From IMG/VR virus record IMGVR_UViG_3300008255_000197, positions 1-44,237 of that record: DNA of 44,237 bases; one strand, 5' to 3'. The stretch is from a virus. Lineage: Duplodnaviria; Caudoviricetes. The notes under the pieces were generated by a model. That model was not told where the DNA came from, ran no database searches, and saw nothing but the letters and a program-made list of their open reading frames with translations. Positions 813 to 44,022 of the stretch are shown here, piece after piece (position 1 is the stretch's first letter; each line of letters begins with the position of its first letter). A program made the position numbers and the translations under genes.

Positions 813-1106
813 ATGCGCCCTAAGCCTTCACGCTACAGCTTCACGCTTCAGATCAAGACGCCCGAGGGCACCCGTAGTCTAGCTGTGATTCGCGGGTACC
901 GAGCAACTTCTGAAGTGATTCGCGGCTTGCTCAAGTCCTACCCAAAATTCAAAGGCGAGCTGCAACTCTACGGGTGTCACGTACGGCGAGACGACCTGCC
1001 GGGAACCGTCTGGCTGAGCGAAGAAGTGTTTCCACTCTGCACGGTCGATATGCTGCGGGATATTTTCAAGCAAGCGGTATCGAACTGCTTGATTACTACG
1101 CAGTAA
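813..1106 (+). CDS. hypothetical phage protein (97 aa)
   Basis: Closely packed in the + strand run; its TAA stop lies inside the dispersed palindrome. Confidence 0.6.
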   Translation: MRPKPSRYSFTLQIKTPEGTRSLAVIRGYRATSEVIRGLLKSYPKFKGELQLYGCHVRRDDLPGTVWLSEEVFPLCTVDMLRDIFKQAVSNCLITTQ

Positions 1107-1108
1107 TT
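1091..1108. repeat. dispersed palindrome copy 1 (GATTACTACGCAGTAATT)
   Basis: TTAC-N6-GTAA; contains the stop of 813..1106 and precedes the AAGGA RBS of 1123. Confidence 0.85.
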
Positions 1109-1122
1109 CACAAGGACATACC

Positions 1123-1608
1123 ATGAAAAACTCACATCCGACATGGATGGAGCAGCCGGAAGTGATCGTCCGGCGCCTCCTGGAATTGTTGGACATGCCT
1201 TGTCAGGTCCGCGCCTCGGGAGAGTATTACTTTCTTCGTCCGTCTAGGGGATGTGTCTCCCTGGCTGCAATCACAAAACGATTGGAGCCAATCCTACGGT
1301 GCTCCAATCTGTACGCCGTTGCCATGTGCCTAGAAATACTGTCCAAAGACAGGAGGCGGGTCCAAGCACTCTGTTCTACTCTCATGAAGACCGCCGAAAA
1401 TCTGAGAGTAGACGCCGCAGCCGCCTTTGAGCAAGCCGCCGGAGATTTCCCGCCGCCGGAAACACGGGCAGAGGCTTGGTGCGAGTATTGTCACGGGAGC
1501 GGCAAGTGTCGGTGCCCCAGATGCCGCAAGGTCCACGCCTCCCCCGACAAGTTGCCGGTTGTCCTGCTAGGTCGCTGCGGGCACCACTGTCCGATTACCA
1601 CAAAGTAA
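1123..1608 (+). CDS. hypothetical protein with C-terminal Cys-rich (Zn-finger-like) region
   Basis: AAGGA RBS; CEYCHGSGKCRCPRC...CGHHC, resembling a DnaJ-type CxxCxGxG. Confidence 0.65.
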   Translation: MKNSHPTWMEQPEVIVRRLLELLDMPCQVRASGEYYFLRPSRGCVSLAAITKRLEPILRCSNLYAVAMCLEILSKDRRRVQALCSTLMKTAENLRVDAAAAFEQAAGDFPPPETRAEAWCEYCHGSGKCRCPRCRKVHASPDKLPVVLLGRCGHHCPITTK

Positions 1609-1610
1609 CA
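1593..1610. repeat. dispersed palindrome copy 2 (GATTACCACAAAGTAACA)
   Basis: Contains the stop of 1123..1608 and precedes the AGGAG RBS of 1625. Confidence 0.85.
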
Positions 1611-1624
1611 GAATAGGAGACCTC

Positions 1625-1918
1625 ATGCAACCATGCCCCCAATGTACCGGCGTTGGCCCGGAGAATTGTCACTGCCCTCGTCCCCGCGTTGACGAAGAGA
1701 CTGTCCCGGCAACATCCCCCGTCGTCTTGGAGAATCAACACCTAGACGTGGAGTTGTTTTACCCCCTACCTCGAACAGACGGCATAAGCCGATCCGAGGT
1801 AAAGGTTTCTCTGATACTCCCAAACACCACGGTTGCTCCTTTGGAAATTCGTTGGGACCACGAGTACGGAGCGTGGTACGTTGTGTGCGGGGGTGTCCCA
1901 TGGCGACCACTGATATAA
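1625..1918 (+). CDS. hypothetical protein (N-terminal CxxC...CxC)
   Basis: AGGAG RBS upstream of the ATG. Confidence 0.6.
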   Translation: MQPCPQCTGVGPENCHCPRPRVDEETVPATSPVVLENQHLDVELFYPLPRTDGISRSEVKVSLILPNTTVAPLEIRWDHEYGAWYVVCGGVPWRPLI

Positions 1919-2145
1919 CCTATGTCCTGAAGCTGCCAACAAGAAAACCCGTCTGTAAGTGGTTGACGGGTGCGGACGGGTTCAACCTTCGGCGCAATCT
2001 TCTCGTGTATCGAAACGGCTACTACGAGGGTTTCGGGACATGCTCCGGGGGGCACACCCACAAGGGTAAGATGGGCCTGTGGATCAATCGGTTTGGGCAG
2101 ACGTGGTGGATCTGCGAGCACGCCCGCCCCTTGGACCCGACGTAG
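1900..2145 (+). CDS. hypothetical phage protein (~81 aa)
   Basis: ATG at 1900 (MATTDITY...) with GGGGG upstream, overlapping the previous gene end; last gene before the convergent junction. Confidence 0.5.
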   Translation: MATTDITYVLKLPTRKPVCKWLTGADGFNLRRNLLVYRNGYYEGFGTCSGGHTHKGKMGLWINRFGQTWWICEHARPLDPT

Positions 2146-2357
2146 CCCCGGCTACATACCCAGGAAGGCCCCTGGCGCTCGTTCTGCGGGCCGATATCCC
2201 CCTAACGGATGCCGAGGCCCCCTAGAGCCACCGCCAGAAGGCCCACGGCCCACACCGGCCAGCCGAAGAAAAGGGAGATCAAAGCTGAGGGGTGGGCCAG
2301 CAGACCGGAGTGGCTGACGACGACTAAGGTTATGACAGCAATTTCGTGGCGCTTCCC

Positions 2358-2789
2358 TTAGAGCTGGCCGGCGACAATGGCGGGCCAGCTCCCCGTCAGC
2401 ACGCCGAAGAGTGTAAGCCCCCAGCTCTTGATCTTCTCTTTCTTGCGATACCACTTCACCTCGCGTCGTGTGGTCCGCAAGACTTTCTGCGTTTCGTCCG
2501 CCAGCGTCTGGTAAGAGGTACTGTGCTTCTGTTCGGCAACCAGCATCTGCTGCTTGTTCTCCAGCCGCTGCTCGTACTTGGCCGTCGCCTGCACGTTGAG
2601 TTGACGCAGCTCCTCATACTGGACCTTCAACTGCTCGTAACGGTCCAGCTTGTGATTGAGCTGAAGCGCGGCGGTCTTGGAGTACAAGTACCCCGCAAAG
2701 GGCGCGGGCTCTCCAGGCTTGACGAGAACGAGATCCTGCCCGCTCACCTCCCCTACCAAAACCATCGCGAGAATCAACAATCGAAGCAT
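2358..2789 (-). CDS. spanin-like membrane protein (signal peptide, coiled coil, C-terminal TM)
   Basis: Start re-called at ATG 2789 (MLRLLILAMVLVG) with GAAAGG RBS; KPGEPAPFAGYL motif, long coiled coil, hydrophobic C-terminus; last gene of the lysis region. No lipobox Cys. Confidence 0.5.
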   Translation of the reverse strand: MLRLLILAMVLVGEVSGQDLVLVKPGEPAPFAGYLYSKTAALQLNHKLDRYEQLKVQYEELRQLNVQATAKYEQRLENKQQMLVAEQKHSTSYQTLADETQKVLRTTRREVKWYRKKEKIKSWGLTLFGVLTGSWPAIVAGQL

Positions 2790-3483: not shown

Positions 3484-3492
3484 GGCAGCACC

Positions 3493-4209: not shown

Positions 4210-4235
4210 GGTTGTGTTTCCTTTCTTTCCCGTCT

Positions 4236-4253
4236 GATTACTACGAAGTAAGG
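4236..4253. repeat. dispersed palindrome copy 3 (GATTACTACGAAGTAAGG)
   Basis: Intergenic, 26 nt upstream of the holin-like start at 4209. Confidence 0.85.
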
Positions 4254-4360
4254 GGTTAAACAGACGTGGGGCTCTTGTGGGTAGCATATTCGTTATGTCG
4301 GAAACATTCGGAGTTTCTGTTGGAAATATAGACAGCATTTGCGACGGTCGAAGTTGGGAT

Positions 4361-5152
4361 TTATAGGGTCAAGGTCGCCTCCATGTGCATACCGTCTTTG
4401 CGTCCCGAGTAGTGTCCGCCCCAGTAGAAGCCGTGCTTGTTGGCCAGCGGGACAAGAGGCCGAACGGTACCGAACGCATTGGCGAGGGCGGGTTGGTGTC
4501 CCAGCATGTTCCACTGGTAGTTGATGTCGAACGCCAGACCGAACGCATGGTTGGACAGGCTGTTGCCCCCCCGTATCAGACGAGGCACGAACGCGCCCTC
4601 GTAGGTCTTGACGAGGTGCAGGAGTCCCGCCGCCTTCCAGGCGCTCCAGAGGTCACACAGAGGCCCTACGATGGACTTGTGGACCCGCATCCGGGTGTAC
4701 TTTCCTTCGGTGGCCTCGGCCAACTCAGGAACCTGAACGGTAACGATGTTTTGCTCCTCCCACTTCCCAAGGATCTTGATGTTCCCGGCGGCATCCAGAC
4801 GTTCATACCGATACAGCTTCCCGCCCAGCATCTGCCGCACGCGGGTCAGGGAAGGGAACAGAAGATCCGGAGGCGCTGGAGGCCAGGAGGCGCTAATCTG
4901 TTCCTCCCGGTCGTCTTCCAGCGTGTCTAATCCGGCCAGCATCATTTGGGCCAAAGTTTTGGGACCGACGAGACCGTCCGAGTCAAGGTCCATCGACTGT
5001 TGGAAGTCTTGAACGGCTATTTTCGTCTTCGGCCCGAACTTGCCGTCCGCCTTTCCAACTCCTCGAAAGTCGGCGCCCAGCAGAAAGAATTGGACGGCCC
5101 TCACGTCGGCCCCCCGATGTCCCTCTCGAAGAACTCGTGTGATTTTCGTCAT
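4361..5152 (-). CDS. endolysin: peptidoglycan-binding domain + M15-family (L-Ala-D-Glu/D,D) peptidase
   Basis: N-terminal LREGHRGADVRAVQ..ADGKFGPKT..AVQDFQ..DGLVGPKT (PG_binding_1); C-terminal SNHAFGLAFDIN, WGG, DGMHME (M15 Zn ligands); GAAAGGA RBS. Confidence 0.9.
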   Translation of the reverse strand: MTKITRVLREGHRGADVRAVQFFLLGADFRGVGKADGKFGPKTKIAVQDFQQSMDLDSDGLVGPKTLAQMMLAGLDTLEDDREEQISASWPPAPPDLLFPSLTRVRQMLGGKLYRYERLDAAGNIKILGKWEEQNIVTVQVPELAEATEGKYTRMRVHKSIVGPLCDLWSAWKAAGLLHLVKTYEGAFVPRLIRGGNSLSNHAFGLAFDINYQWNMLGHQPALANAFGTVRPLVPLANKHGFYWGGHYSGRKDGMHMEATLTL

Positions 5153-5211
5153 GCCATTCCTTTCGTCTCGATCCTATCGGATCGACCGATCCGTGTGTGC
5201 ATGCCCGCCGC

Positions 5212-5646: not shown

Positions 5647-5655
5647 AGCCTCATT

Positions 5656-5937
5656 TCATGTCCAGGAGTCCAACAGGTTGTCGTCGGAGTCTCGAAGTTC
5701 TAGCGTATAAGGTCCGGCTCCAGTTACCACGAAGTAATACATCTCACCATGATCCGGCCCGGGGAATTCTGTGGCATCCTGGCCCGGGGTCAACGCAGGA
5801 GTGCCGACAAAGAACTGGAGCCTGCCCGAAGGACCAGCAGGAAGTGTGATGTCGTAGAGAAGAACTGCCGCCTCCATGACTATGGGCGAATCCTTGTCGA
5901 GGCGGACCAGATCATCAGGAGAAATGGTTGTACTCAT
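5656..5937 (-). CDS. hypothetical protein (93 aa)
   Basis: ATGA overlap with the upstream gene; operon context. Confidence 0.6.
   Translation of the reverse strand: MSTTISPDDLVRLDKDSPIVMEAAVLLYDITLPAGPSGRLQFFVGTPALTPGQDATEFPGPDHGEMYYFVVTGAGPYTLELRDSDDNLLDSWT
5722..5739. repeat. dispersed palindrome copy 4 (AGTTACCACGAAGTAATA)
   Basis: Intragenic copy with the commonest spacer, CACGAA. Confidence 0.75.
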
Positions 5938-6515: not shown

Positions 6516-6527
6516 GAGATACCTCCT

Positions 6528-6983: not shown

Positions 6984-6989
6984 GGGTGC

Positions 6990-7460
6990 TTACTTGCCAT
7001 TCAGTGTCAGGTGACTTTTCTCAGCTCTCCTACAAGTTCTTTTCAATTGCTGCATGAGGGGGGCCATGCAGACGGCCAATACCAATTCACTCAGCCAGCC
7101 ATTGCTATCTTTCCGAACCGTGTCATCGAAGAGTCGGTGATTCTCTGTTGAGACCACACTCTCCTCGGGGTAAATACCCACGAAGGAGACTCCGTGTTTC
7201 ATTTCTCGTAACTTACTGACCACTCCTGCCATGTCCGAGTGGTCAAGCGGAAGATCCACGACCATGGTGTCGTAAGTGTGACCTTCAAGAAACTCTTCCT
7301 CGGCCTCTGTCGCGGTCGATACCATGGTTATCCGGGCCAGATGCTGAACGCCCTGTTCCTTGTCTGACAAAAGCTGTTTCAATCTGTCCAGGAGATCCAT
7401 GTCTTCGTCCAAGATAAGAACTGCCGTCCCCCCACCACCTCCTAGTCGCCTGATGCACAT
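6990..7460 (-). CDS. stand-alone receiver-domain protein (divergent CheY-like)
   Basis: VLILDED acidic pocket, YDTMVVD phospho-acceptor strand, VSFVGI, FDDTVRK; no output domain. Confidence 0.6.
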   Translation of the reverse strand: MCIRRLGGGGGTAVLILDEDMDLLDRLKQLLSDKEQGVQHLARITMVSTATEAEEEFLEGHTYDTMVVDLPLDHSDMAGVVSKLREMKHGVSFVGIYPEESVVSTENHRLFDDTVRKDSNGWLSELVLAVCMAPLMQQLKRTCRRAEKSHLTLNGK

Positions 7461-7463: not shown

Positions 7464-7847
7464 TCAGCCCTTCCTTTCCCCGCGCAGCCCATCCATCCAG
7501 ATCGCTGCGCTGCCAACAGTCGGCTTCATGAACCACCGACAACCCGTCGCCTCCACGAACTTTTTTGCGTCTGCATTATCATTCCAGTCGTAAGCAGAAA
7601 GCATCACGAATCGATCTATGAGCTTTGGGTAGTGCTTCTCGACATATAGGTAAAATGCAATGCCATCCATCCCGTCAGAGAGCTTCCAGTCCACCAACAA
7701 CAGGTCTGGGTCTAACCCCCCGGCCAGATGAACAATCGCCGACGCCGCACTCCCGCAGCAAACCGCCGTGATATGGCGAAGGGAAAACACCCTCTTAATC
7801 ACGGTGAGGACGAGAGGCGCATCGTCTATGGCCAGGACAGTTGGCAT
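7464..7847 (-). CDS. stand-alone CheY-like response regulator receiver
   Basis: VLAIDD, PDLLLVDWKLSDGMDG, FVMLSA, FMKP: all canonical REC residues present; 127 aa. Confidence 0.9.
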   Translation of the reverse strand: MPTVLAIDDAPLVLTVIKRVFSLRHITAVCCGSAASAIVHLAGGLDPDLLLVDWKLSDGMDGIAFYLYVEKHYPKLIDRFVMLSAYDWNDNADAKKFVEATGCRWFMKPTVGSAAIWMDGLRGERKG

Positions 7848-10036: not shown

Positions 10037-10046
10037 TGGTGTCTCC

Positions 10047-10064
10047 AGTTACTTCGTGGTAATC
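10047..10064. repeat. dispersed palindrome copy 5 (AGTTACTTCGTGGTAATC)
   Basis: Intergenic, between the stop at 10069 and the GGAG RBS of 10036; 22 bp identical to copy 8. Confidence 0.9.
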
Positions 10065-10068
10065 CGAT

Positions 10069-13023: not shown

Positions 13024-13025
13024 GG

Positions 13026-13043
13026 GATTACCTTGTAGTAACT
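13026..13043. repeat. dispersed palindrome copy 6 (GATTACCTTGTAGTAACT)
   Basis: Fills almost the whole 23-nt gap between TAG 13047 and ATG 13023; 21 bp identical to copy 9. Confidence 0.9.
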
Positions 13044-13046
13044 GGA

Positions 13047-17117: not shown

Positions 17118-17130
17118 GGTGGCGTACCCC

Positions 17131-17148
17131 CGTTACTTCGTGGTAATC
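17131..17148. repeat. dispersed palindrome copy 7 (CGTTACTTCGTGGTAATC)
   Basis: Contains the TAA stop of 17133..17591. Confidence 0.9.
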
Positions 17149-17591
17149 GGCGCGTAATCGTTCAGGCGCCAGAAAGTTCCGATCAAGCGTGACCAGAACG
17201 GAACCGTGATAGCAGAGAGGCCGACATAGTTCTTCTCGAAGACATAGAAAAACTGCGTTTTGTCCACCATGAACAGAAGCATCAGGCGTCCCGAGAACGG
17301 CTTGGTCAACATCAGGTCGCCGTGCCGAACGTCTCGGCGGGCCAAGACCTTTGTGGCCCGGGCATGCAACGCCGTCAAGACCCGATCCTCGTTCTCTACC
17401 GTGAACCACTCTTCGAGCCGTCGCGGCTCTCCCGTGCGATCCTTCCAGAACCTCTCTCCAGTGTAGCCGCAGCACTCCACCAACACCTTGTCCAACAAGG
17501 TGATACAATTCAACGGTAGTTCGCCACCGTCCAGGCGAAAGAACGAGTTGAACTTCTGCCCGGTGAATGTAGCCGGTTTACAAGTATGCAT
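17133..17591 (-). CDS. NlpC/P60-like tail assembly protein (gpK position), degenerate
   Basis: Position between gpL-like and gpJ-like genes; LNCITL in place of xDCxGL; RHGDLML; the catalytic His segment is not recognisable. Confidence 0.5.
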   Translation of the reverse strand: MHTCKPATFTGQKFNSFFRLDGGELPLNCITLLDKVLVECCGYTGERFWKDRTGEPRRLEEWFTVENEDRVLTALHARATKVLARRDVRHGDLMLTKPFSGRLMLLFMVDKTQFFYVFEKNYVGLSAITVPFWSRLIGTFWRLNDYAPITTK

Positions 17592-19827: not shown

Positions 19828-19838
19828 GGGAAGGCTCC

Positions 19839-19856
19839 AGTTACTTCGTGGTAATC
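19839..19856. repeat. dispersed palindrome copy 8 (AGTTACTTCGTGGTAATC)
   Basis: Overlaps the TGA of the DUF6527-like gene and abuts the GGAG RBS of 19827. Confidence 0.9.
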
Positions 19857-20172
19857 AGTGTGCCCAAGAGACGCAACCCAGAATGATCCAATATCGCGAG
19901 CGACAGCGACTTGGGCTTTCAATGGAGGGGGTTAGGGTGGGGCCAGAAGAACTCTGTATCATATGCCACCTGGCCACTGGAAATGGGGCGCCCTGGAGGG
20001 GGAGGGGGACGGGCATCCCGCAGCCGCAAGGGCAAAGATGAATGGATTGTGTTGGGTAACTGGCATCATATTGAACATACAAGACTGCTGGAAACAAGTG
20101 TTCAATGTTGTAAATATACGGAACTAGTTCCAAGCGCACAGTCACGCCACCCTTAGCCACCACCCGCCACAT
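19855..20172 (-). CDS. DUF6527-like small Cys/His protein (likely start GTG 20145 or 20139)
   Basis: PAVLYV..HLCPCGCG..VPLPL..W..PTLTPSI..CRSRYWI..VSWA matches the DUF6527 pattern as I recall it. Confidence 0.7.
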   Translation of the reverse strand: MWRVVAKGGVTVRLELVPYIYNIEHLFPAVLYVQYDASYPTQSIHLCPCGCGMPVPLPLQGAPFPVARWHMIQSSSGPTLTPSIESPSRCRSRYWIILGCVSWAH

Positions 20173-27796: not shown

Positions 27797-28246
27797 TTAC
27801 TCTCCCTGTTCGTCGGGAACTCCCGATAACCACGGCTCCAACTCATACTGGGTGGAGGCGGTCTCCTCGGGGCTTTCCGTTCCGGCTCTCTCGTGTTCTT
27901 GCTTCTCTCGAATTGCGGCGTGATAGAAATCGAAAAGGACATTCAACTTCTCGAACAACTCCGTGTCATCCGTCCGTCCGTATCGATCCAGATCCAACCA
28001 CACCGCCACATGGTTCAGCGCGATGGGCGTTCCCAGTTCTCCTGGGACCACCTGCCGACACACTGTCGGCCACATCTGCACCGCATCCTCGTTCTCGGGG
28101 AGCGGCTTAACTTGAGAGGTGACGACGGGGCACGCTCGGCATAGGCGCTTGGAGCGGGCGCCCGTCGCCTGCTCCTTCAGGCAGACTCCGCACTCGGGGA
28201 GTCCGAAGTCGGCGTTTCGCTTCGCCCATCGCTTGGCGAGTTTCCC
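27797..28246 (-). CDS. tail assembly chaperone, -1 frameshift extension (gpGT-like)
   Basis: The -1 frame from the slippery site reads GKLAKRWAKR..CGVC..CRACP..PLPENEDAVQMW..ALNHVAV and ends just before the tape measure. Confidence 0.75.
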   Translation of the reverse strand, partial: GKLAKRWAKRNADFGLPECGVCLKEQATGARSKRLCRACPVVTSQVKPLPENEDAVQMWPTVCRQVVPGELGTPIALNHVAVWLDLDRYGRTDDTELFEKLNVLFDFYHAAIREKQEHERAGTESPEETASTQYELEPWLSGVPDEQGE

Positions 28247-28722
28247 AGGTTCTCGAACTCCTTCTGGCGCAGGAACCGGATGTAGTTGGCGGGCTTGAGG
28301 GTCGTGGTCTGAACGAAGTCCCCAAACGCCACGGAATTGTTGCCGAGCTTGGCGACGTTCTCTGCCGACCACGGCATCTCCGTGACGCCAGGGCCAAAGT
28401 CCTGCTCCAGATCGCGAAGGGTGATCTCCGCGCCCAGCAGCTCGGAAAGAACGTCCGGCGTCAGGCCGCTCCAGCCCTTCACCGTATCCGTCAGGAACTC
28501 GGCGAGAAGCGCCTCATTGTGCGACTTCCAACACGGCTCCCCGGTCAGCTCGTCCGTGTCCTTGTAGCGGTGCTTGTTCTGCAATCGCTCCATGTCCTCT
28601 CTCTGGAGGAACACAGCCTGAATCACGAACAACCCCCACTTCGTCTTGACCGTGACGGGCTGGTTCCGCGCCACGCCTCGCTTGTGCTGTACGGTCCTGC
28701 CCCAGAAACTTCCGTTTGCCAT
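28177..28722 (-). CDS. tail assembly chaperone (gpG-like)
   Basis: Between tail tube and tape measure; VKGWSGL..MPWSAENV motif; AAGGAAGAAGG RBS. Confidence 0.8.
   Translation of the reverse strand: MANGSFWGRTVQHKRGVARNQPVTVKTKWGLFVIQAVFLQREDMERLQNKHRYKDTDELTGEPCWKSHNEALLAEFLTDTVKGWSGLTPDVLSELLGAEITLRDLEQDFGPGVTEMPWSAENVAKLGNNSVAFGDFVQTTTLKPANYIRFLRQKEFENLGNSPSDGRSETPTSDSPSAESA
28240..28246 (-). other. programmed -1 ribosomal frameshift site G GGA AAC
   Basis: X XXY YYZ heptamer in the correct phase (CTG GGA AAC, Leu-Gly-Asn) joining the two chaperone ORFs. Confidence 0.85.
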
Positions 28723-28749
28723 GCCCTTCTTCCTTTCTGTTTACCGCCC

Positions 28750-28767
28750 GATTACTTCGTAGTAATC
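28750..28767. repeat. dispersed palindrome copy 10 (GATTACTTCGTAGTAATC)
   Basis: Most symmetric copy (7-bp perfect arms); intergenic between tail tube and chaperone. Confidence 0.9.
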
Positions 28768-28789
28768 AAACGGTACGGAGATTGTGATG

Positions 28790-30683: not shown

Positions 30684-31136
30684 TTATGCAGCAAACTGAG
30701 AGATTGTCACAATGTCAACCTTCAGCATGTACATCTGAAGGGGGTAAATGGTCGTAGGTCCATGCCTGCGTTTGACTTCGCTGTTGGTTATCCTGGCCCC
30801 CCAGGAGGCGTCGAACACCATTAACCTCATGGTAATCGCATCCCGCACCGTCTTCACCTTGTTATCGACCCGCAAGAAAGCGTCGGAGCCCTCCTCCCAC
30901 TCGATAATGGCGAGGTATATATCGTAAAGAAAATGCCGCTCGACCTGCTCGTTCCCGAGGACGCTCTCAACCTCATCGGGTTCGGGGATGAACACAGCGT
31001 CCATCTGATCTTGGCGCACCATGTCCAGGTTCGGCTTCTCGAAAACTCTAGCTACGGTCTTGAACGTATCGCCACACACTATTTGAATCGTCTCGCGAAG
31101 ACGCTCGGTGATCACATGTCCATCTGAGGGATTCAT
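30684..31136 (-). CDS. tail terminator/completion-like protein 2
   Basis: Neck-region synteny; helix - FKTVARV - DAVFI - beta pattern similar to the neighbouring gene. Confidence 0.5.
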   Translation of the reverse strand: MNPSDGHVITERLRETIQIVCGDTFKTVARVFEKPNLDMVRQDQMDAVFIPEPDEVESVLGNEQVERHFLYDIYLAIIEWEEGSDAFLRVDNKVKTVRDAITMRLMVFDASWGARITNSEVKRRHGPTTIYPLQMYMLKVDIVTISQFAA

Positions 31137-32436: not shown

Positions 32437-32438
32437 CG

Positions 32439-32456
32439 GATTACCACAAAGTAATC
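32439..32456. repeat. dispersed palindrome copy 11 (GATTACCACAAAGTAATC)
   Basis: Overlaps TGA 32455 and ends 2 nt before ATG 32436. Confidence 0.9.
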
Positions 32457-33180
32457 AGCCCAGACGAGTGCCGCCTCGGGTGAAGGCTTCCTTGGACTCG
32501 CGAAGCATCTTGCACTCGAACTCGTCTTTCTTCTCATTGCCGTCTGAAGCGATGCGCTTCCCGGCACTATAGATCACCCTCCGGCCATCCCCACGGTTCA
32601 CCCCGGCCAAATTCTCCCTCTTATTGGCAAGTGCGTGAAGACATTTGAACGAGGCGTAAAGAACCACGTACTCCCGATAGTTATCGGGTAGTGTGGCGAG
32701 GGTCCAGAGCTTCATGGCCAGGTAAAGATACGTCCGAACGGCGGACGGTTCTGGCATGATCTTTAGGATCTTAGACTGACTGTCGAATGTCCAGTCACGA
32801 CCCTGACGAATATCCTGCTGAAAGTCCTTAATCTTGAGAATTGTCCAAAGGCTGGGGTTGTCGTACAGCTCCCGAGCCTCAAACACGACTCCATTACCTT
32901 CCGGCGGAAACACGAAGGTATCGCCCGTAGCGGAAGAAGTCTCTCGGGGGAAAGTAACCTGAGCGATAGCCACAAGCCCGGTCACCGCCGACAGATCGTA
33001 AGATTGTTGACTTTCGACAGAGACTAGGCTCCTAGCCTCCCGAGCATGCACCCACTTGGAAATCTCCACGACAGAATCGTCAATCTTCTGATCGACGAAG
33101 GTGTTGGCCAACTCTGCCGGAGCGGGCGATCCGCACTCGATAAGAATCTCTGGCCGAAGACTGTCCTTGGTGAGTGTCAT
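32455..33180 (-). CDS. head-tail adaptor / head completion protein
   Basis: Synteny after the capsid; QQSYDL, LKIMPEP, LPDNYREYVVLYA adaptor-like motifs. Confidence 0.6.
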   Translation of the reverse strand: MTLTKDSLRPEILIECGSPAPAELANTFVDQKIDDSVVEISKWVHAREARSLVSVESQQSYDLSAVTGLVAIAQVTFPRETSSATGDTFVFPPEGNGVVFEARELYDNPSLWTILKIKDFQQDIRQGRDWTFDSQSKILKIMPEPSAVRTYLYLAMKLWTLATLPDNYREYVVLYASFKCLHALANKRENLAGVNRGDGRRVIYSAGKRIASDGNEKKDEFECKMLRESKEAFTRGGTRLG

Positions 33181-33797: not shown

Positions 33798-35090
33798 CTA
33801 GGCGGGCACCCCGCTCGGGTTCGTGACCTTCACGATGCCGTAGTAGTCCGGGTTCAGCTTCTGCATGCCGTACCGATTCATGACGTAGCGGCCCCGCTGA
33901 CCCGTGAGGTCGTCGATCTCTGGGGACACATAGTCCATCATGTACGGGCAGAACGCCGTGCCCGAAGTCGTCGGCGAGCCTGACCGAGAGATGCAAAGGA
34001 TCAGCTCGTTGCCGTCGTCATCCACCTCGGGGAAGTCAGGGTCCACCCAGAGGTTGAAGCGGTTCGCGACGGAGCCCTGGAGGTACTGATTGCCAGTCAC
34101 GATCTGTCCGGGGGAACCGAACATCGTGTTGTTCAGGATCTTGGCGCTCCAGCTCTCCAGCTTCGTGAGACGGCTCTGACCGCTCAGACCGACGAGAAGG
34201 TCCGTGACCCGCTGGTACACGAGACCCCCGATGATCCGCTCCACGTCCACGATGGCATCGAAGATCGTAGCGTCATATGCCTTGCGGTGGAGGGTGATGT
34301 CCTTGTCGCCATCGAGGAACCCGGCGGCGTTCCACTCCTTCGTTCCGGCGACGGGGTACGCCTGATCGGGAGAGAACCCGTTGGCGTTCAGAAACTCCAG
34401 GTACAGCCACCCATTGCTCTGCCGCCGCAGGTCGATGAGGTTCATCTTCAGCATCTCGGCGTGCGCGTCGATGCTGTGGTACGCCTGGAGGTCCTGAAGC
34501 ACCTCAATGGGGACCACAGACTTCACCTTGTCCGTGTTGGCGCTGATGTCGGCGCCCCGGATCTTCGTCTTCGTATCGACGATGGTGGACCCGGGGGTGT
34601 TGTTACGAGCGTAGGAGCGGTTGAGGACGCGAAAGTTCTGCTCCGTGGCCCCAGCGCCGCCCGTCTCCCGGAAGTGGTCGATAGTGAACGCCTTGACCGT
34701 GGGCGTGGACGTTGGAATGGTCCCGGCCAAATCGAAGGCCAGGTTGTCGGGAAGGTTGTGACGCATCAGGATGATGCTCTGAGTCACGAACGGAGTCACG
34801 TCGGCTGCCGTCATGGCCTCCCAGAGAAACCGCTTCATGATCTTGGAATTCTCGATCATCTCAGGTCGGATGTGAAGTCCCTCACGGACCATGTTGTCGG
34901 CGCTGATCTCAAACGACTGCCGGGCCGAGTCCACCAGACCCTCGGACATGAAATCCCATCGCGCCTTCCGAATGGGATCTTCCGCGAGACCGTCCAGGGT
35001 CGCACGGTACATCTGGGGGATCTTGCTCGCGAACGAGCCAGCCCGCCCACCTGCCATCGCCCTCGGCGAGTAACCGATGCCGCTGCTCAT
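33798..35090 (-). CDS. major capsid protein, T4 gp23-like
   Basis: C-terminal AFCPY..DDLTGQRGRYVMNRYG..NPDYYG matches the gp23-family CPY..TRYG pattern; GAGGAGGAG RBS; 430 aa. Confidence 0.85.
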   Translation of the reverse strand: MSSGIGYSPRAMAGGRAGSFASKIPQMYRATLDGLAEDPIRKARWDFMSEGLVDSARQSFEISADNMVREGLHIRPEMIENSKIMKRFLWEAMTAADVTPFVTQSIILMRHNLPDNLAFDLAGTIPTSTPTVKAFTIDHFRETGGAGATEQNFRVLNRSYARNNTPGSTIVDTKTKIRGADISANTDKVKSVVPIEVLQDLQAYHSIDAHAEMLKMNLIDLRRQSNGWLYLEFLNANGFSPDQAYPVAGTKEWNAAGFLDGDKDITLHRKAYDATIFDAIVDVERIIGGLVYQRVTDLLVGLSGQSRLTKLESWSAKILNNTMFGSPGQIVTGNQYLQGSVANRFNLWVDPDFPEVDDDGNELILCISRSGSPTTSGTAFCPYMMDYVSPEIDDLTGQRGRYVMNRYGMQKLNPDYYGIVKVTNPSGVPA

Positions 35091-35923: not shown

Positions 35924-36634
35924 AATACATTCCTCCTGTCCTCTTTCTCGGAGAGTAATGCACTCTCTTTCCGTGATTTCCTGTGTCAGAACCTCATCCA
36001 ATTCCACTCCCGCTGCAACTTCACTTGGGTTCAAGACGAAATCGAAGATGTCGAGATAATAGTTATCCTGAACATTTGCGACCACGCCATGAGGCGCAAT
36101 CTCCTTTTTCTCCGTGGCCCCATAACCCCGGGAACTCACTCCTGGTCTACCCCCCGCCTCCAGGATCGACAAAATATGACTGCCCCAAAAACTCCTACAA
36201 AGAATCGCCACCCCCCACAACTCCTTACCCTCCCACCACAAATCCTCCAGAATCGCCGCCACGTCTCGAATCTGAGGGACGGCCACCTTCTTCACACCCT
36301 CATCCGTCTTCACGTCCATGTTGGGCAGAGGGTGATCCACATTCATCATCCCCGAACCCCGCTTCGCCCGGGCCAAGACCTTGATCCTCTCCCGCTCCAA
36401 AAGATCCCAAGAGTAATACCGACCGTTCTGATTCTTCGTCTCCGCGATGGAGAAAATACCGCGAACCCGAGGACGAGTCCTCACCTCGGAGACTGTCAAG
36501 AACTCTCCCGCCAGAGACTGAGCCTCCTCCAGAGAGACGCGAGAAGTCTCGACCAGGACCAATTCCGAGGCAACATACTCGACCAATAGTCGGCGCCCAA
36601 CGCCCGGACCTTCATTCAATGGCTCGTGAATCAT
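35162..36634 (-). CDS. prohead protease (T4 gp21-like) fused to scaffold
   Basis: Start re-called at ATG 36634 (GGAG RBS); KNQNGRYY, VDHP, GVSSRGYG, FDFVLNPS; Glu-rich coiled-coil C-terminal half. Confidence 0.85.
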   Translation of the reverse strand: MIHEPLNEGPGVGRRLLVEYVASELVLVETSRVSLEEAQSLAGEFLTVSEVRTRPRVRGIFSIAETKNQNGRYYSWDLLERERIKVLARAKRGSGMMNVDHPLPNMDVKTDEGVKKVAVPQIRDVAAILEDLWWEGKELWGVAILCRSFWGSHILSILEAGGRPGVSSRGYGATEKKEIAPHGVVANVQDNYYLDIFDFVLNPSEVAAGVELDEVLTQEITERECITLRERGQEECIMKNLKELQEKYPDLCAELLKENAATLRTSILEAELPKAVQAEVDTIVRRANSGEVLEGMQKQTLQLIVEGLKDMTVEAKNPFAKKEAEEEEEVKDSTAPSAATVMETASSKEIKRRLFLAENENVALKESLGKIASDLASQKVETHVNRVLADVTEATVRSFVSEQIKFAAPKTIDEANAVIQRSLAAAKSLQSAAPVVESTKSGAGFSHLLETRGSLFGGDDSIEESQAYKDWEARMNPGTVKNGSKATEGN

Positions 36635-37011
36635 AGCTCTCCACCCGTTACTTCGAGGTAATCCGGTTCCGGTTCCTGCCCCAGTAAGATGGAGCTTCCG
36701 CCACATGGGCAGGCGGGGACGCTTCGCAGGGAGATGTCACTCGATCCGCATGCATTGGGGCACGGTACGGCGCGTCCTGTCCCTAGCAAAGCTCGAATGA
36801 ATGACGACTTGTGCTCTTGAAAGATACGGTGTGCGTCATCCTTGAACTCTCGAAATTCGGGATTAGTTTCGCCGCCACAAACCGCCTTGCCCCGCGACAA
36901 GACAGCCTTGAACGCCCGCATCAGAGACAGGTGAAACAAGCCGGATACGTCCAGATCCTTCTCTGGAAGACGAAGCCCGGCGAAAGCTATTCGACTCTGA
37001 AGGGCTTCCAC
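36631..37011 (-). CDS. hypothetical protein with Cys cluster
   Basis: Tightly packed between head genes; CPNAC..CPCG; ATGA overlap with the protease start. Confidence 0.5.
   Translation of the reverse strand: MEALQSRIAFAGLRLPEKDLDVSGLFHLSLMRAFKAVLSRGKAVCGGETNPEFREFKDDAHRIFQEHKSSFIRALLGTGRAVPCPNACGSSDISLRSVPACPCGGSSILLGQEPEPDYLEVTGGEL
36646..36663. repeat. dispersed palindrome copy 12 (CGTTACTTCGAGGTAATC)
   Basis: Immediately upstream of the RBS of the protease start at 36634. Confidence 0.85.
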
Positions 37012-37014: not shown

Positions 37015-37443
37015 TTACTTCTCGCTGTCCGAGGACAACGCAGTTACGATTCGCCGGAACTTGGTGGCCGGGAGGAACTTGCGCCCTGCCGTCGCCTCGA
37101 CGATCCGACGCACGCTCGACACCGGTTTGCCGGAAACCTCTGAGAGCGTTTCCATCAGACCGTTGGTGAAACAGAACGGCTTGGACAAATCGGCGATCTT
37201 CTGCGCCGCCACCTCCCGAACAATCACCGCCTCCACCATCTGCTGCCGCTGCTCGGAGACGGCGCCCATCGAAAGTGGAGAAGCGCTTCCATAGGTCGAA
37301 ATATTGATGGAGAACCCGAGATACGACAACAGCTTCTGTACCGTCGCCCGCAGCTCGCCCTCCACTTTCTTTCTCTCCTCGGGCGGCAGCTCCCAGAGAC
37401 CTTCCGAAATGACCCACTGATTGTCTTCCGTCAACTTGAGCAT
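37015..37443 (-). CDS. hypothetical protein (142 aa), possible C-terminal HTH
   Basis: Start re-called at ATG 37443 (GGGAGG RBS, 1 nt after the portal stop); METLSEVSGKPVSSVRRIVE is HTH-like. Confidence 0.6.
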   Translation of the reverse strand: MLKLTEDNQWVISEGLWELPPEERKKVEGELRATVQKLLSYLGFSINISTYGSASPLSMGAVSEQRQQMVEAVIVREVAAQKIADLSKPFCFTNGLMETLSEVSGKPVSSVRRIVEATAGRKFLPATKFRRIVTALSSDSEK

Positions 37444-39190: not shown

Positions 39191-39198
39191 GAGAGTTT

Positions 39199-39216
39199 AG
39201 TTACTACGTTGTAATC
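39199..39216. repeat. dispersed palindrome copy 13 (AGTTACTACGTTGTAATC)
   Basis: Overlaps the TerL TGA; 8 nt before the portal ATG. Confidence 0.9.
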
Positions 39217-41107
39217 AGTTGTGGAACGCCTTGTTGTAATGTCGATCCATCAAATCGTCTACCGTAGAAACAGGACGAACGCCCCGAGACGTGTCCACCC
39301 ACAGCAGATTAGATCCGCTGCGGGCCATGGAGGCGATCCGTCCTGGCGCGTTCATCTCCAGAAGCGACTTGAGGTTATCCGGTATTTGATCGGGCGCGTT
39401 TGGCAACAACTGCTGGTTGATAACGTCGGAGTAATCGTACCCCCGGTCAATTCGAGCCGCCAGCAAATCGTAGGAAGTCGCATGAAAACAGTGCGAATCC
39501 CGGCGCTCGCGATAGATGAAACAGGGCACTTTTCGGGAGTCGTCATACACCCGAACCAATGCCGTCATCTGCTTGAAGAAGTCCCCCCCGAGCAGGGCAT
39601 CGGCGTTTCTCGGCAAAAGGTCCGACCCACGCAAGATGCTCTGCGTGGTGTCGTCCAGCAACTCCGTCCGGCCCACCGTGATGGTGGAGATGCCGTCCTC
39701 CTCCTTGACCTTGTACCCCGAAATATTCTCCGCCTTGCTGTACTCCACCATCATGGCCCGTCCGTACCAACGTTGACAGAACGCCTTGGCCGAGGCTCGC
39801 TCGGGCAAAGAGTCCACAACGGCCAGTCGAACACCGAACACCTTCATCAGCATGTCCAGACCCGGCATACCGGGCTCCATCGGAACCTCCAACATCGCAA
39901 TCAATCGACGGATTCCGGTCGAGTAGTCCGAGATCCGCACATGGAGGCGGCGAGTGCCTACGTCCACACCCATCGTAGTTCCTGTTGCCGTCAGAGGAGC
40001 GTCATACGGCTTCAGCTCCGTGAGCTTGCGAAGCTCTGTCTCTGTCAACTCGTACCCCGAGGAGGTGAACGCCAACCCCAAGTAGGAGTTGTAAAAGTTC
40101 CTCATCTTCGTGGCGTTGCCCAGAGACTGGAAGAACATGATCGCCAAGTCACGAGACTTGTACCGCGTAAACAACTTGGAAAACTCATATCCATGGGTTG
40201 TTCGACTAGGGAACTCGGCTGACCAATCGCCCGCCGCCAGACGATCTTTAGGCTTCCCACAGAAGGGACAATAGCACCGCAACTCTGTCCCAGATTCGGG
40301 CGTCCAGTCAGGGTCCAAAGGCTCGAAGTCGCCCTCGTCCACTTGCCGCACGAAGTCTCGATGCCAGTCGAGCGTTTCACTCCGCCGACAATGCCCGCAT
40401 GGAACGCGGTAGCGAAGCTGATCGCTCTCTTGGTACTTGAGGTCGATACCCACCCCTTCAATGGTGGGATTCCCACAAAGCCGGGTCCAGACATCCCCTT
40501 CGTTCTCTTCCGACGCCAGACGGTCGAACGCCATGGGCAAGTACCCCGGAATCTCCGACTCGTCGTACTCGTCAATGACGAGTACCTTGGCCGGAAATTC
40601 CTTGAAGTATTCCCCCATCTGCGCCCCCACATACCGAATAACACCCGAGCCAAAGTGCTTCTGGCTCATGTTCTGAGAGGAGCCGTCCGCCCCCCGAGAC
40701 ATCTTCCGATAGTGCTCAGAACGCTTGATTGTCTTATCGACACGGTTCTGAACATACAGGTTTTTTAGGGTATTATTCGGCATTACGTAGATTACAGGAC
40801 GGCCCTCTTCGGCGTGCCAAAGGGTCTCGCACGTCAACTCCTCCGTCTTACCAGATTGCACACAACCCTTGTTCACCCGATGGTTTTCCAGGTGGGCGCG
40901 TTCCCACCAACGACGCGCATATGGACGCCGCCTGAGATCCACCTTCTTTCCGTTCTCACAGACATGATTCAGATGGGCATAGCCGACCAGCTCATGGTTG
41001 GCGTAGTACCCGAGCAAGGCGGCACCCTCTGGATCTTCTCTCTCGAAAGCAGAGAGCTGGTCTTGCAGATCCACCTCGCGCTGGAACAGGCTCTTGGGCT
41101 GAGACAT
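39215..41107 (-). CDS. terL: terminase large subunit, lambda gpA-type
   Basis: Walker A KGCVQSGKTE, Walker B VLVIDEYDE, coupling GNPT, CGHC..CPFCG Zn motif, FYNSYLG, nuclease MGVDVG. Confidence 0.92.
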   Translation of the reverse strand: MSQPKSLFQREVDLQDQLSAFEREDPEGAALLGYYANHELVGYAHLNHVCENGKKVDLRRRPYARRWWERAHLENHRVNKGCVQSGKTEELTCETLWHAEEGRPVIYVMPNNTLKNLYVQNRVDKTIKRSEHYRKMSRGADGSSQNMSQKHFGSGVIRYVGAQMGEYFKEFPAKVLVIDEYDESEIPGYLPMAFDRLASEENEGDVWTRLCGNPTIEGVGIDLKYQESDQLRYRVPCGHCRRSETLDWHRDFVRQVDEGDFEPLDPDWTPESGTELRCYCPFCGKPKDRLAAGDWSAEFPSRTTHGYEFSKLFTRYKSRDLAIMFFQSLGNATKMRNFYNSYLGLAFTSSGYELTETELRKLTELKPYDAPLTATGTTMGVDVGTRRLHVRISDYSTGIRRLIAMLEVPMEPGMPGLDMLMKVFGVRLAVVDSLPERASAKAFCQRWYGRAMMVEYSKAENISGYKVKEEDGISTITVGRTELLDDTTQSILRGSDLLPRNADALLGGDFFKQMTALVRVYDDSRKVPCFIYRERRDSHCFHATSYDLLAARIDRGYDYSDVINQQLLPNAPDQIPDNLKSLLEMNAPGRIASMARSGSNLLWVDTSRGVRPVSTVDDLMDRHYNKAFHN

Positions 41108-42108
41108 CAGTTGTCGTCCTCTTCGTCATCGTCATCCTCAAAGGACTCCGAGGAGGCGCCAGACGCTGAAGGTGTCGGGAGCGGTGGGGTAACGTCTTTG
41201 GCTGTCTCCTCCACCGGCCCGAGGAGTTCCAAAGAGCTGATACGAAACCGACCCTTTCGATCTTTGATGAGCGCAGCCAGCTTCGTCAAGTTGTCGTCGT
41301 ACATGTCTCCCGTGACCGACATCTCGGTACTGGGGTTCCGACCACCAGCTCCCGCCTTGTCCAGGTACTGAAGCTCTCGCAGGAACTTTAGGGCCTGGAG
41401 GATGTTGCCTTGAATCGCCGTAACAGCGGCCCACGCCGGGCCACTCTGTTTGACTTTTTGACGCGACCGGCTACCGCCCCTGCGTCCCGATCCAATTACT
41501 TCGTCGTTATCGGAATCTTCATGAAGAGGCTTCTCCGTCTCCGTCTGGACGTGCCCCATCAACGCCACTTCCAGGGTGCGATGGAGCTTGGCGATATAGA
41601 TGTTGGTAGCGTCCACCAGAGTCAAGTAAGCGTGCTTTTGATCCACCGGACGTTCGAGGCGCTGTTCCTCGAAGTCCCGAATCATCTGCACATCTTTCTT
41701 GATGATGTGCTTCGTCTCCCCCATCCGCGCCTCGATGTCCTCCAATGAATACCCGGCATACATCATCTCGCGAACCACGCGACGACGTTCCAGGCGCCAC
41801 GCCATGTAGTCTTCCCGAGGCCCGCCCTTCAACGGCTTACTCTTTCGCAACCGATAAAGGATTCGAGTCAACTCCGCCTCGTCGGGGGACACCACGGGCG
41901 AGGTCATGGCGAGAAGCGTTCGCCCGCCCAAAAACTCCAAAACGGAACGATCCGCCTTCTTGGGAAGCGTTATGCCCTTCTCGCGCTGAAGGTTTCGACG
42001 CTGCTTATCCAGCACCGCCTGTTCTTTCTTCTTTCGGGATAGCTCTGATCTAACGCGGCGAGCCTTTGCCAGACGCATGCAGGCTACCGCCCTGTTGCTG
42101 AATTCCAT
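41107..42108 (-). CDS. putative terminase small subunit (HTH)
   Basis: TGATG-coupled to TerL; HTH-like GYSLEDIEARMGETKHIIKKDV; start re-called at ATG 42108 (MEFSNR). Confidence 0.6.
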   Translation of the reverse strand: MEFSNRAVACMRLAKARRVRSELSRKKKEQAVLDKQRRNLQREKGITLPKKADRSVLEFLGGRTLLAMTSPVVSPDEAELTRILYRLRKSKPLKGGPREDYMAWRLERRRVVREMMYAGYSLEDIEARMGETKHIIKKDVQMIRDFEEQRLERPVDQKHAYLTLVDATNIYIAKLHRTLEVALMGHVQTETEKPLHEDSDNDEVIGSGRRGGSRSRQKVKQSGPAWAAVTAIQGNILQALKFLRELQYLDKAGAGGRNPSTEMSVTGDMYDDNLTKLAALIKDRKGRFRISSLELLGPVEETAKDVTPPLPTPSASGASSESFEDDDDEEDDN

Positions 42109-42308
42109 ACCAAGAAGATATCCGAACGGAAAAAAAAGGACAGCACACCATGAACACGACACGAGAACCCATGTTCGAGATCCAGAACCCCGCCGCCGAC
42201 CCCACCGACGACAAGGAAAATGAGGAGGTCCCCACGCCCGGCGCCACCCCCGCCCCCAGTCCGAATTCCCCACCACCCACCCCCCTTCCTACAAAGGAGA
42301 CTTCTGCG

Positions 42309-42809
42309 ATGAACCGAACCCCCTTCCTGCTCACCGTCTTTTCGATCCTCCTGATCGGCGCCTTCCTTCTTCCCGCACCGGCCATGGCCCAGGGCACCAC
42401 CATCATCGGCCCGATCACCGTCCCCGCCAATTCGACGGTCACCCTACCCAACACTTCCGCGCTCTCCCGGCCAGACATGATCCACAGTGCTCAGCTCACG
42501 GTAGTCCGGACTTCCGGCTCCGTCAGCGTGGCTCTCCCCACCACCATGGTCGTGAGGTTCGGGCTCAACCTTCAGGCCAGCACCGCCACGAAGCCGGTGA
42601 CTGGAGCCTTCACGTTCCACAACTTCGTCGGACGAAACGGCCCCACGGGCTCGACGAACCAGGCCAACACCTACTCGTCTTCGGCGCCGAGCGCACTCAC
42701 CACCCGCTGGTTCTTCCCGATCACCATGCCCAGGGCAACATGGAGCCTGCCGCAGTTCAGCAACCCGACCACCCACCCTTCGACGGCCATACTGATCCTT
42801 CAACACTGA
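42309..42809 (+). CDS. secreted beta-rich hypothetical protein
   Basis: AAGGAG RBS before ATG 42309; signal peptide ..LLPAPAMA/QG; Thr-rich; followed by a terminator. Confidence 0.7.
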   Translation: MNRTPFLLTVFSILLIGAFLLPAPAMAQGTTIIGPITVPANSTVTLPNTSALSRPDMIHSAQLTVVRTSGSVSVALPTTMVVRFGLNLQASTATKPVTGAFTFHNFVGRNGPTGSTNQANTYSSSAPSALTTRWFFPITMPRATWSLPQFSNPTTHPSTAILILQH

Positions 42810-42833
42810 TCGCCCGTCGTTCAACACAACAGG

Positions 42834-42863
42834 AAACCCGGCCATGGGGCCGGGTTTTTCTTT
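42834..42863 (+). terminator. Rho-independent terminator
   Basis: AAACCCGGCC-ATGG-GGCCGGGTTT followed by TTCTTT. Confidence 0.8.
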
Positions 42864-42883
42864 GCCTTCAGAACTATTCAACC

Positions 42884-43780
42884 ATGAAAGAAAAGAATCT
42901 CGGTCTGCTCCGTTGGGCAGGCGGCAAAACCCAAGACCTTCCCCGACTCCGCTACCTATTCCCCGCCAACTTCAACAACTACCTAGAACCCTTCGTTGGG
43001 GGCGGGGCGGTGTTTTTCTTTCTTAGATCCTGCGGGTACAACAAAAAGGCAATATTGAACGACTCCAACGAGGAACTAATCGCAACCTACCAAAACCTAA
43101 GAGACAACCCCCGACAAATCTTCCACGCGCTGAAGCAAATAGAAAGCCGAAGTGAAGGCCGGGAAGAAGCCCTATACTATGAAACGCGGGACGACTTCAA
43201 CAAACACCTGAGCAGCAGGACGGTTTCCCAAGCCGCACGCTTTCTGGCATTGAACAAGAACAACTTCAACGGTCTCTATCGCGTCAACCGAAAGGGATTC
43301 TTCAACGCCCCGTGGGGGAGATGCGCCCCCTTCCGACGCCCATCGAAGGCCCGACTCCTTCAGGTCTCGTCCGCGCTCCAGAACACACAGCTCCTGAGCA
43401 TGGACTTCGAGGCGTGCCTTCACCAATATGCCAAGCCCGGAGACTTCGTGTACCTCGACCCACCTTACTGCACCCAAGGGGATACCTCCGACTTCACTGC
43501 GTACAGCAAGGCCGGATTCACCGGGTTTGATCAAGTCCGACTTCGGGACGCCATGCACACCGCCCACAAATCGGGCGTCCAGCTACTACAAAGTAACGCA
43601 AATACGGAAACCACCCAACGCCTTTACAACGGCGGGTGGTGCGATATCTGGGTGGGGGCAGAGCCGACGCGGCGTGCCATCGGCCCCACAGCAGAAGGAC
43701 GGCACACGGTGCACGATCTAATAATTGCCGCTCGATACATGACCATAGGACAATTCCTCTTCCGCCGCATCGACTACTAA
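42884..43780 (+). CDS. dam: DNA adenine methyltransferase, Dam/D12 class
   Basis: LRWAGGK, YLEPFVGGGAVFF, FNGLYRVNRKGFFNAPWG, FVYLDPPY; start re-called at ATG 42884. No cognate restriction enzyme in the window. Confidence 0.9.
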   Translation: MKEKNLGLLRWAGGKTQDLPRLRYLFPANFNNYLEPFVGGGAVFFFLRSCGYNKKAILNDSNEELIATYQNLRDNPRQIFHALKQIESRSEGREEALYYETRDDFNKHLSSRTVSQAARFLALNKNNFNGLYRVNRKGFFNAPWGRCAPFRRPSKARLLQVSSALQNTQLLSMDFEACLHQYAKPGDFVYLDPPYCTQGDTSDFTAYSKAGFTGFDQVRLRDAMHTAHKSGVQLLQSNANTETTQRLYNGGWCDIWVGAEPTRRAIGPTAEGRHTVHDLIIAARYMTIGQFLFRRIDY

Positions 43781-43995
43781 GGTTTCGGGGGGAGAGTCCA
43801 GATCAAGCGTGGGGCGCTACACCCGCGCTTCTTGTGACGTGCCCGGCAAGTCGCGCACAAAAGGGCGGCATGACACTTGGGGCAAATCTTCGCGGGAGGA
43901 GATGATTCCACAACACCACCGCACTCCCGACACAGAAAGCCTCGCCCCGCACAAGTGGGGCAGCGACGATACGGCATGTACTTTTCAAGGGGCAT
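43777..43995 (-). CDS. small Zn-finger-like protein
   Basis: CPTCAGRG..CRECG..CPKC..CATC; probable start 43995 or 43977. Confidence 0.55.
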   Translation of the reverse strand: MPLEKYMPYRRCPTCAGRGFLCRECGGVVESSPPAKICPKCHAALLCATCRARHKKRGCSAPRLIWTLPPKP

Positions 43996-44004
43996 TGAGT
44001 TACC

Positions 44005-44022
44005 AGTTACTACGGAGTAATC
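44005..44022. repeat. dispersed palindrome copy 14 (AGTTACTACGGAGTAATC)
   Basis: Contains tandem TAG TAA stops of the partial upstream ORF; 9 nt before ATG 43995. Confidence 0.85.

Follow-up and report, generated by a model that had tools for sequence, protein, structure and literature searches.

We analysed a 44,237-nt stretch of DNA (hereafter the window; IMG/VR record IMGVR_UViG_3300008255_000197) from an uncultured groundwater phage that is divergent and siphovirus-like, and we demonstrate that it carries 14 copies of the palindromic core TTAC-N6-GTAA within a 22-bp dyad. The window represents ~30% of the genome as estimated by CheckV, and the whole phage is a tailed, very divergent virus of roughly 150 kb. 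It is very probable that some protein binds these sites; given binding, we see an even chance that this reader belongs to the ParB/Noc/KorB-type family. Overall, the 22-bp dyads may well be docking sites for a phage homodimer with a silencing or organising role in the genome, probably a ParB/Noc/KorB-type protein of altered specificity. In a more tentative form of this reading, the phage would encode a re-specified member of a widespread, undescribed Noc/ParB-fold family that tiles the whole chromosome in even steps as a silencing or organising grid. The TTAC word would then be a natural switch in specificity from the TGCAA word of cultured phages such as RcZahn and L338C, a step that we propose with the same reserve. 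An earlier sequence-only reading had already interpreted the array as a protein-DNA system. Its phage-specific site for a dimer on double-stranded DNA stands, whereas its suggestions of helix-turn-helix (HTH) readers inside the window and of recombination gain no support.

Copies of the palindrome and chance level

All 14 cores lie where they had been reported, starting at 1093, 1595, 4238, 5724, 10049, 13028, 17133, 19841, 21324, 28752, 32441, 36648, 39201 and 44007, and the original observation is confirmed overall. When the spacer between TTAC and GTAA was varied from 0 to 15 nt, 14 occurrences fell at N6, one at N10, one at N13 and none at any other length. Dinucleotide shuffles contained a mean of 0.14 cores, with 0 of 100 reaching 14, and the codon-preserving control that had been asked for gave a mean of 0.48 and a maximum of 2 cores in 300 synonymous-codon shuffles. 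The enrichment is therefore real (0.14-0.48 cores expected, compared to the ~0.25 claimed earlier), but the GC content is 57.4% and not ~60%. The spacer had been described as YACRAA, which fits only 8 of 14 copies; the sites are better described symmetrically. Stacking of the 28 halves yielded the half-site C-Y-R-R-T-T-A-C-Y-W-C and hence a 22-bp dyad centred on C-G with ~28 bits. The 14 copies score 23-32 bits, with a clean gap above weaker copies. Four near-consensus copies with cores at 41496, 43583, 30822 and 39421 lie inside genes, and at a threshold of at least 10 bits these four exceed the 0.89 found in 200 shuffles (p ~0.01). The array had been termed genome-wide. It is spread over the window, and it is for this part of the genome that the term can be asserted. 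The copies are as follows, without assignment to a strand (ORF, open reading frame):

1089-1110, site 1: core 1093-1106; holds the stop of ORF 813-1106; start 1123 (plus-strand genes) 17 nt on
1591-1612, site 2: core 1595-1608; holds the stop of ORF 1123-1608; start 1625 17 nt on
4234-4255, site 3: core 4238-4251; in the 151-bp gap that follows the endolysin; start 4209 29 nt downstream; against transcription
5720-5741, site 4: core 5724-5737; intragenic, ORF 5656-5937
10045-10066, site 5: core 10049-10062; intergenic; GGAG and start 10036 directly after
13024-13045, site 6: core 13028-13041; intergenic; start 13023 5 nt downstream; against transcription
17129-17150, site 7: core 17133-17146; holds the stop of ORF 17133-17591; tail-fibre J-like gene 16 nt downstream
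19837-19858, site 8: core 19841-19854; adjoins the stop at 19855; start 19827 14 nt downstream
21320-21341, site 9: core 21324-21337; inside the 2545-codon tape-measure-like gene; against transcription
28748-28769, site 10: core 28752-28765; the most symmetric copy; 109-bp gap; 30 nt upstream of start 28722
32437-32458, site 11: core 32441-32454; adjoins the stop at 32455; start 32436 5 nt downstream
36644-36665, site 12: core 36648-36661; 3' end of ORF 36631-37011; likely prohead-protease start 17 nt downstream
39197-39218, site 13: core 39201-39214; terminase-portal junction; portal start 11 nt downstream
44003-44024, site 14: core 44007-44020; holds the stop of ORF 44010-44180; likely start 43995 12 nt downstream
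41492-41513, near-consensus copy, 21.1 bits: inside the likely small-terminase gene
43579-43600, near-consensus copy, 18.0 bits: inside the adenine methyltransferase gene
30818-30839, weaker near-consensus copy, 12.7 bits: inside ORF 30684-31136
39417-39438, weaker near-consensus copy, 11.4 bits: inside the large-terminase gene

Placement, orientation and codon use

For twelve of the 14 cores, a start codon follows 5-30 nt after the end of the core, compared to 4.3% of positions (p ~4e-15), with several of the start codons picked by us from ribosome-site context. As claimed, the sites lie mostly at gene junctions and two of them, 5724 and 21324, are within genes; in the wide gaps (4238 and 28752) the site is closer to the next start than to the preceding stop. 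Both orientations are indeed used: judged with an asymmetric matrix, 10 of 14 copies run with transcription and 4 of 14 against it. The gaps between sites have a coefficient of variation (CV) of 0.54 and are more even than under uniform placement (p 0.010) or under placement at 12 random starts plus 2 random places (p 0.002). Site 9 is spelled with TTA (3% of Leu codons) and CTA (6%), and the methyltransferase copy at 43583 with CTA CTA (6% each). Since rare codons occur at the intragenic copies 21324, 43583 and 30822, the DNA word appears to be selected despite codon preference.

The word could instead be the central part of phage late promoters or of activator sites, or act in the mRNA as a signal for translating the next gene. 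Forward copies cluster 11-17 nt before starts, often with GGAG next to them, and in two reversed copies the likely ribosome site falls inside the word. Still, we consider such a role unlikely given the use of both orientations and the intragenic copies. No second conserved element was found in the 60 nt upstream of the sites, where the best 5-mer is present at 5 of 14, and sigma-70-like sites are at chance level (5 vs 4.7 and 11 vs 7.8). Sense-strand folding of 26-mers is weak for most copies (mostly -0.6 to -6 kcal/mol), the hairpins are not conserved and the window has no match to an Rfam family. Poor pairing of the sense-strand arms, the two orientations and the rare codons of intragenic copies all favour a dimer on double-stranded DNA over an RNA hairpin, in agreement with the first interpretation.

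Site-specific recombination sites that shuffle gene modules would be another explanation for inverted arms around a 6-bp centre, two classes of half-site and copies lying over stop codons, and repeat-repeat recombination has been reported in Cluster O mycobacteriophages (PMC4351075). However, essential virion genes lie between copies that share both orientation and centre. Thirteen sites are spanned by long contigs of run X1 without a joint (21324 is outside both stretches), a check that covers contigs, in which rare variants are dropped, and a run that may be the window's own source. There is no recombinase among the window's family matches. We regard recombination as highly improbable; of the kinds of protein system listed earlier, it gains no support from these contigs.

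Candidate readers inside the window

Two proteins of the window had been named as possible readers, and neither is supported as such:

41107-42108, minus strand: HTH protein, likely the small terminase
37015-37443, minus strand: 142-aa helical ORF between portal and protease

The first lies directly upstream of the large terminase, and its Atlas neighbours carry HTH_23 and Terminase_5 on minorities of members; both position and neighbours point to a small terminase. The second has no significant family or fold match: its single-sequence model reaches a predicted local distance difference test (pLDDT) score of 67, no Foldseek match was found at E 0.001 and Atlas matches stay below 0.9.

If the sites were packaging or self-recognition marks, they could be read by the small terminase or by a virion-assembly protein. 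The HTH protein adjoining the large terminase contains a near-consensus copy in its gene, and even spacing would suit such marks. However, their position before starts is not needed for packaging, and the small terminases known so far work at a single pac or cos region. We regard this role as very unlikely.

Remote relatives and the phrog_17202 protein

Indirect support for a ParB/KorB-like protein that silences or organises the genome, one of the options raised before, comes from relatives of the head module. Capsid-picked contigs have portal, protease, capsid and head-completion genes in common with the window at ~25-30% identity, and nine such records (G006, G007, G008, G009, G010, G011, G012, G013 and G016) were examined whole. 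Evenly spread arrays of another palindrome of 14-15 bp, TGCAA-N4/5-TTGCA, are present in G006 (22 copies in 94 kb), G007 (15 in 94 kb, CV 0.55) and G009 (14 in 65 kb); G013 has 5 copies and G016 a looser form. No array of this type was found in G008, which is complete, nor in G010, G011 and G012, which are 27-32% fragments.

An uncharacterised protein of family phrog_17202 is present in G006, G007 and G016. Searches did not detect it in G008, which is complete and has no array, or in the G009, G011, G012 and G013 fragments. It has no Pfam ParB_N match. The top Foldseek row of its model (pLDDT 76.5) is Noc-NBS 6y93 (probability 0.97, template modelling score 0.71 by target, E 0.5). In VIA-align, the model matches Spo0J with Z 9.4 (root-mean-square deviation (rmsd) 2.6, 104 aligned), ParB with Z 9.0 and KorB with Z 7.2 (rmsd 3.6, 107 aligned). 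The modeled structure thus likely has the fold of the Noc/ParB/KorB DNA-binding domain. G016, picked by the phrog_17202 protein alone, contains TGCA-N7-TGCA 11 times vs 1.3 expected. In all seven cultured phages picked by this protein, TGCAA-N4-TTGCA-type arrays are the top palindromes, with 8-46 copies in counts that leave out the last 0.2-10 kb of five genomes. These phages, RcZahn, DLP5, TM16, L338C, SIO-2, LV6 and HJ05 (W01-W07), were chosen from 46 matched records to span hosts. Among viral loci, GCAA-N4/5-TTGC is enriched in 38 of 55 picked by phrog_17202 compared to 0 of 80 picked by terminase. The hosts of cultured carriers are Rhodobacter, Rhizobium, Stenotrophomonas, Vibrio and Aeromonas, and the protein has the helix motif RKAxYL. 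In RcZahn and DLP5 an array copy lies less than 100 bp ahead of the phrog_17202 gene; inside the gene itself no copy was found in G006 or G007. DLP5 has been described as a temperate phagemid (PMC5834331).

The relatives' ParB_N gene was also considered as a reader and rejected, as it does not track the array and occurs in the array-less G008 as well. In G008 it adjoins glycosyltransferase- and epimerase-like genes, and it resembles ParB activators without a DNA-binding domain (PMC13229309).

Further observations concern the arrangement of these arrays. In the carrier locus L392 (12601-18579), array copies precede TTGACA hexamers by ~8-10 bp at six or more places, an arrangement similar to that of promoter-proximal KorB operators. 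Dense AT-rich clusters with 6-7 array copies and repeated TGTGGAA words occur upstream of early genes in G006 (22122-22350) and G009 (20029-20503); they could be an origin, a centromere or a main control region. A provirus with the phrog_17202 family, locus L399 (1429-7690), contains six copies of GGATCGTGA(C/G)CGATCC inside longer repeats.

Weighing the readings

A ParB/Noc/KorB-type binder with switched specificity is favoured by the regular spacing, the free orientation and the intragenic copies, together with the habits of the lineage. ParB-family specificity can be switched by four residues (PMC7383237), and KorB represses from near and far operators located 4-10 bp to more than 1 kb from the promoter (PMC11790492). 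The gene of the reader would lie in the 70% of the genome beyond the window, and its homodimer would be seated about every 3 kb along the lytic genome. In the lysogenic or early phase, bound dimers would hinder RNA polymerase on the long late operon in a KorB- or stoperator-like manner. By analogy with KorB, they would thereby damp the late operon, and genome handling would not be their only role.

A number of findings weigh against the ParB/Noc/KorB-type reading. Profile searches of this ~30% genome fragment, including searches for the phrog_17202 type, revealed no reader. The relatives are remote (capsid ~25% identity), and G009 and G013 (53% and 34% complete) have arrays although no phrog_17202 gene was found there. 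The E-value of the fold match is not significant and Raf1 ties at Z 9.5. In the comparison of phrog_17202-picked with terminase-picked viral loci, the 55 former include near-duplicates and the controls are shorter, with 33 of 80 reaching 10 kb. TTAC cores number at most 1 in the 55 carrier loci, 0 in 14 whole records and 0 in five of the seven cultured phages, with 5 and 3 in the other two. The TTAC and TGCAA half-sites differ at four of seven positions, and GCAA-N4/5-TTGC occurs once in the window, which therefore does not carry the TGCAA-type word. In the window 8 of 14 site centres lie within 40 nt of a stop, vs 2/15 to 12/43 (13-28%) in six carriers and a background of 7-11%. This stronger tie to junctions fits a classic operator better.

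The sites would in that case be operators or stoperators of a classic HTH phage repressor that blocks transcription at starts in lysogeny. The 12 of 14 sites tied to starts, tighter than in ParB/Noc-type carriers, and the 10 of 14 copies running with transcription agree with such a function, as does the temperate nature of relatives: G006 has integrase, cI and cro, and G013 and G016 are classed as proviruses. Repeats of Microbacterium cluster EG phages are placed similarly (PMC7302621). However, stoperators are asymmetric and oriented (PMC4351075) whereas 4 of 14 copies are reversed here, and operators are not expected to be evenly spaced. The window contains no repressor, and the cI-cro gap of G006 holds no array copy, so that the array is not the CI operator there. 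Overall, we judge a classic repressor to be rather unlikely.

Search for the word in other sequences

The TTAC array is private to this phage and absent from all other sequence searched. Motif patterns matched 79 viral, 82 non-self metagenome and 43 GTDB loci, none of which had a second array of the word; the metagenome scan comprised 89 loci, of which 7 are the window's own contig and 9 were available as 620 bases only. No further piece of the same genome was recovered in the viral, metagenome and GTDB scans, and since no more than 6-7 of the 14 sites match the scan patterns, further pieces could have escaped detection. Among loci picked by homologues, at most 2 cores were seen in 80 terminase-picked and 17 capsid-picked loci and at most 3 in 15 whole records. 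No close relative was found: the nearest capsid has at most 32% identity (self excluded) and the nearest terminase at most 35%, viral-contig scans with terminase alone or capsid alone gave no locus, and the capsid and tail-tube-like proteins had no match in GenBank phages. Our literature search, which covered text outside figures and supplements, did not reveal a publication on the TTAC word, the TGCAA array or such an array with its reader. The main text of the DLP3 paper, taken without supplements, does not contain 'palindrom', 'inverted repeat' or 'operator'. An apparent palindrome excess in loci L088 and L138 turned out to be tandem repeats. In a distant terminase relative, three GATAA-N6-TTATC palindromes surround the terminase region (L120, 284-6984).

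These searches also bear on the possibility that the phage has adopted the sites of a host regulator or nucleoid protein. The lack of a reader in the window speaks for this explanation, and the TTAC-N6-GTAA frame presumably resembles the CopR/PcoR copper box. However, a 20-letter pattern that fits 7 of 14 sites was found at only 43 places in 185,579 GTDB genomes and nowhere as an array; the sole repeatedly matched genome, a Spirochaetota genome with five matches, has them within repeated paralogous sequence. In addition, the analogous word of the relatives is common to hosts of different classes and tracks a phage gene. We therefore find a host factor quite unlikely.

Comparison with known systems

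Arrays of this kind are already known in phages and unexplained; the window contributes a new word whose link to virion-gene starts is unusually close. With 14 copies plus four near-consensus ones in 44 kb, 12 of the 14 no more than 30 nt from a start and the orientation mixed (10 along transcription, 4 opposed to it), it belongs among the dispersed palindromes. The conserved inverted repeats of phiC31 are a further parallel, on which we found no paper. In Microbacterium cluster EG phages, an 18-bp inverted repeat is present 8-10 times in short intergenic gaps, 14-22 bp before starts (PMC7302621). Like the window's site, theirs is a phage-specific dyad ahead of starts, and its function is unexplained. 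It differs in sequence and is confined to right-end non-structural genes, while the window's copies lie mostly in the virion operon and some are intragenic. Cluster O mycobacteriophages contain 34 copies of a 17-bp palindromic repeat, predicted to be bound by a dimer and likewise unexplained in function (PMC4351075). This repeat is also a dispersed dyad with no meaningful orientation that lies between and within genes, mostly off promoters, but it has another sequence, a 7-3-7 layout and a loose tie to starts, and it is denser in the non-structural arm.

KorB-OB of RK2, ParB-parS and Noc-NBS resemble the window's array in that ParB-family dimers act on short palindromes (PMC11790492, PMC7383237). 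By its sequence the window's site, a 14-bp core in a 22-bp dyad, would likewise be a short palindrome in multiple copies. KorB differs in that it needs a CTPase clamp domain and KorA (PMC11790492), whereas the relatives' phrog_17202 protein lacks a Pfam ParB_N match. Cluster A stoperators and the SAS/ESAS of Cluster K are also present in many copies at gene junctions or starts (PMC4351075, PMC3203893). Unlike the 22-bp dyad used both ways, with 4 of 14 reversed, stoperators and SAS are 13-bp, asymmetric and oriented sites.

Reports of dispersed palindromic phage repeats go back a decade, with no function assigned (PMC4351075, PMC7302621). Of greater use is what the relatives show: the presence of the candidate reader family phrog_17202 is predictive of an array in all of the cultured phages examined (7 of 7). 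The function of such arrays can now be tested in cultured carriers, starting from gene 66 of Rhodobacter phage RcZahn or gene 074 of Rhizobium phage L338C.

Gene content of the window

Most sites lie in a minus-strand operon, which includes the following:

2358-42108, minus strand: virion and lysis operon
39215-41107, minus strand: large terminase, gpA-type
33798-35090, minus strand: gp23-like capsid protein
4361-5152, minus strand: endolysin

Other late genes on this strand encode a T4-like portal, an S77 protease and the 2545-codon tape-measure-like protein, and tail genes match DUF2460, BR0599 and Phage-tail_3. The plus strand carries an RNA ligase and an adenine methyltransferase. No tRNA was found in the window, and no RNA dataset containing its sequence is listed. 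One aquifer run contains 99% of the words sampled from the window and may be its source; the contig of run X1 extends ~4.1 kb beyond the right end of the window.

Four additional loci were noted. At 123-127, within the RNA ligase gene, contigs of runs X1 and X4 have 1143 extra letters, and part of the population likely carries an intron, an intein or an insertion element here. Two adjacent small ORFs of the late operon (6990-7460 and 7464-7847, minus strand) resemble stand-alone receiver domains; ORF 7464-7847 matches Response_reg, and ORF 6990-7460 was judged receiver-like by eye only. A signal-peptide ORF (42324-42809, plus strand) and a D12-class adenine methyltransferase (42884-43780, plus strand) oppose the late operon, with a 12-pair hairpin between them at 42832-42859, and the pair is moron-like. 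Ahead of the tape measure, the tail-chaperone-like ORFs 28177-28722 and 27797-28372 (27797-28722, minus strand) overlap, which suggests the usual programmed frameshift.

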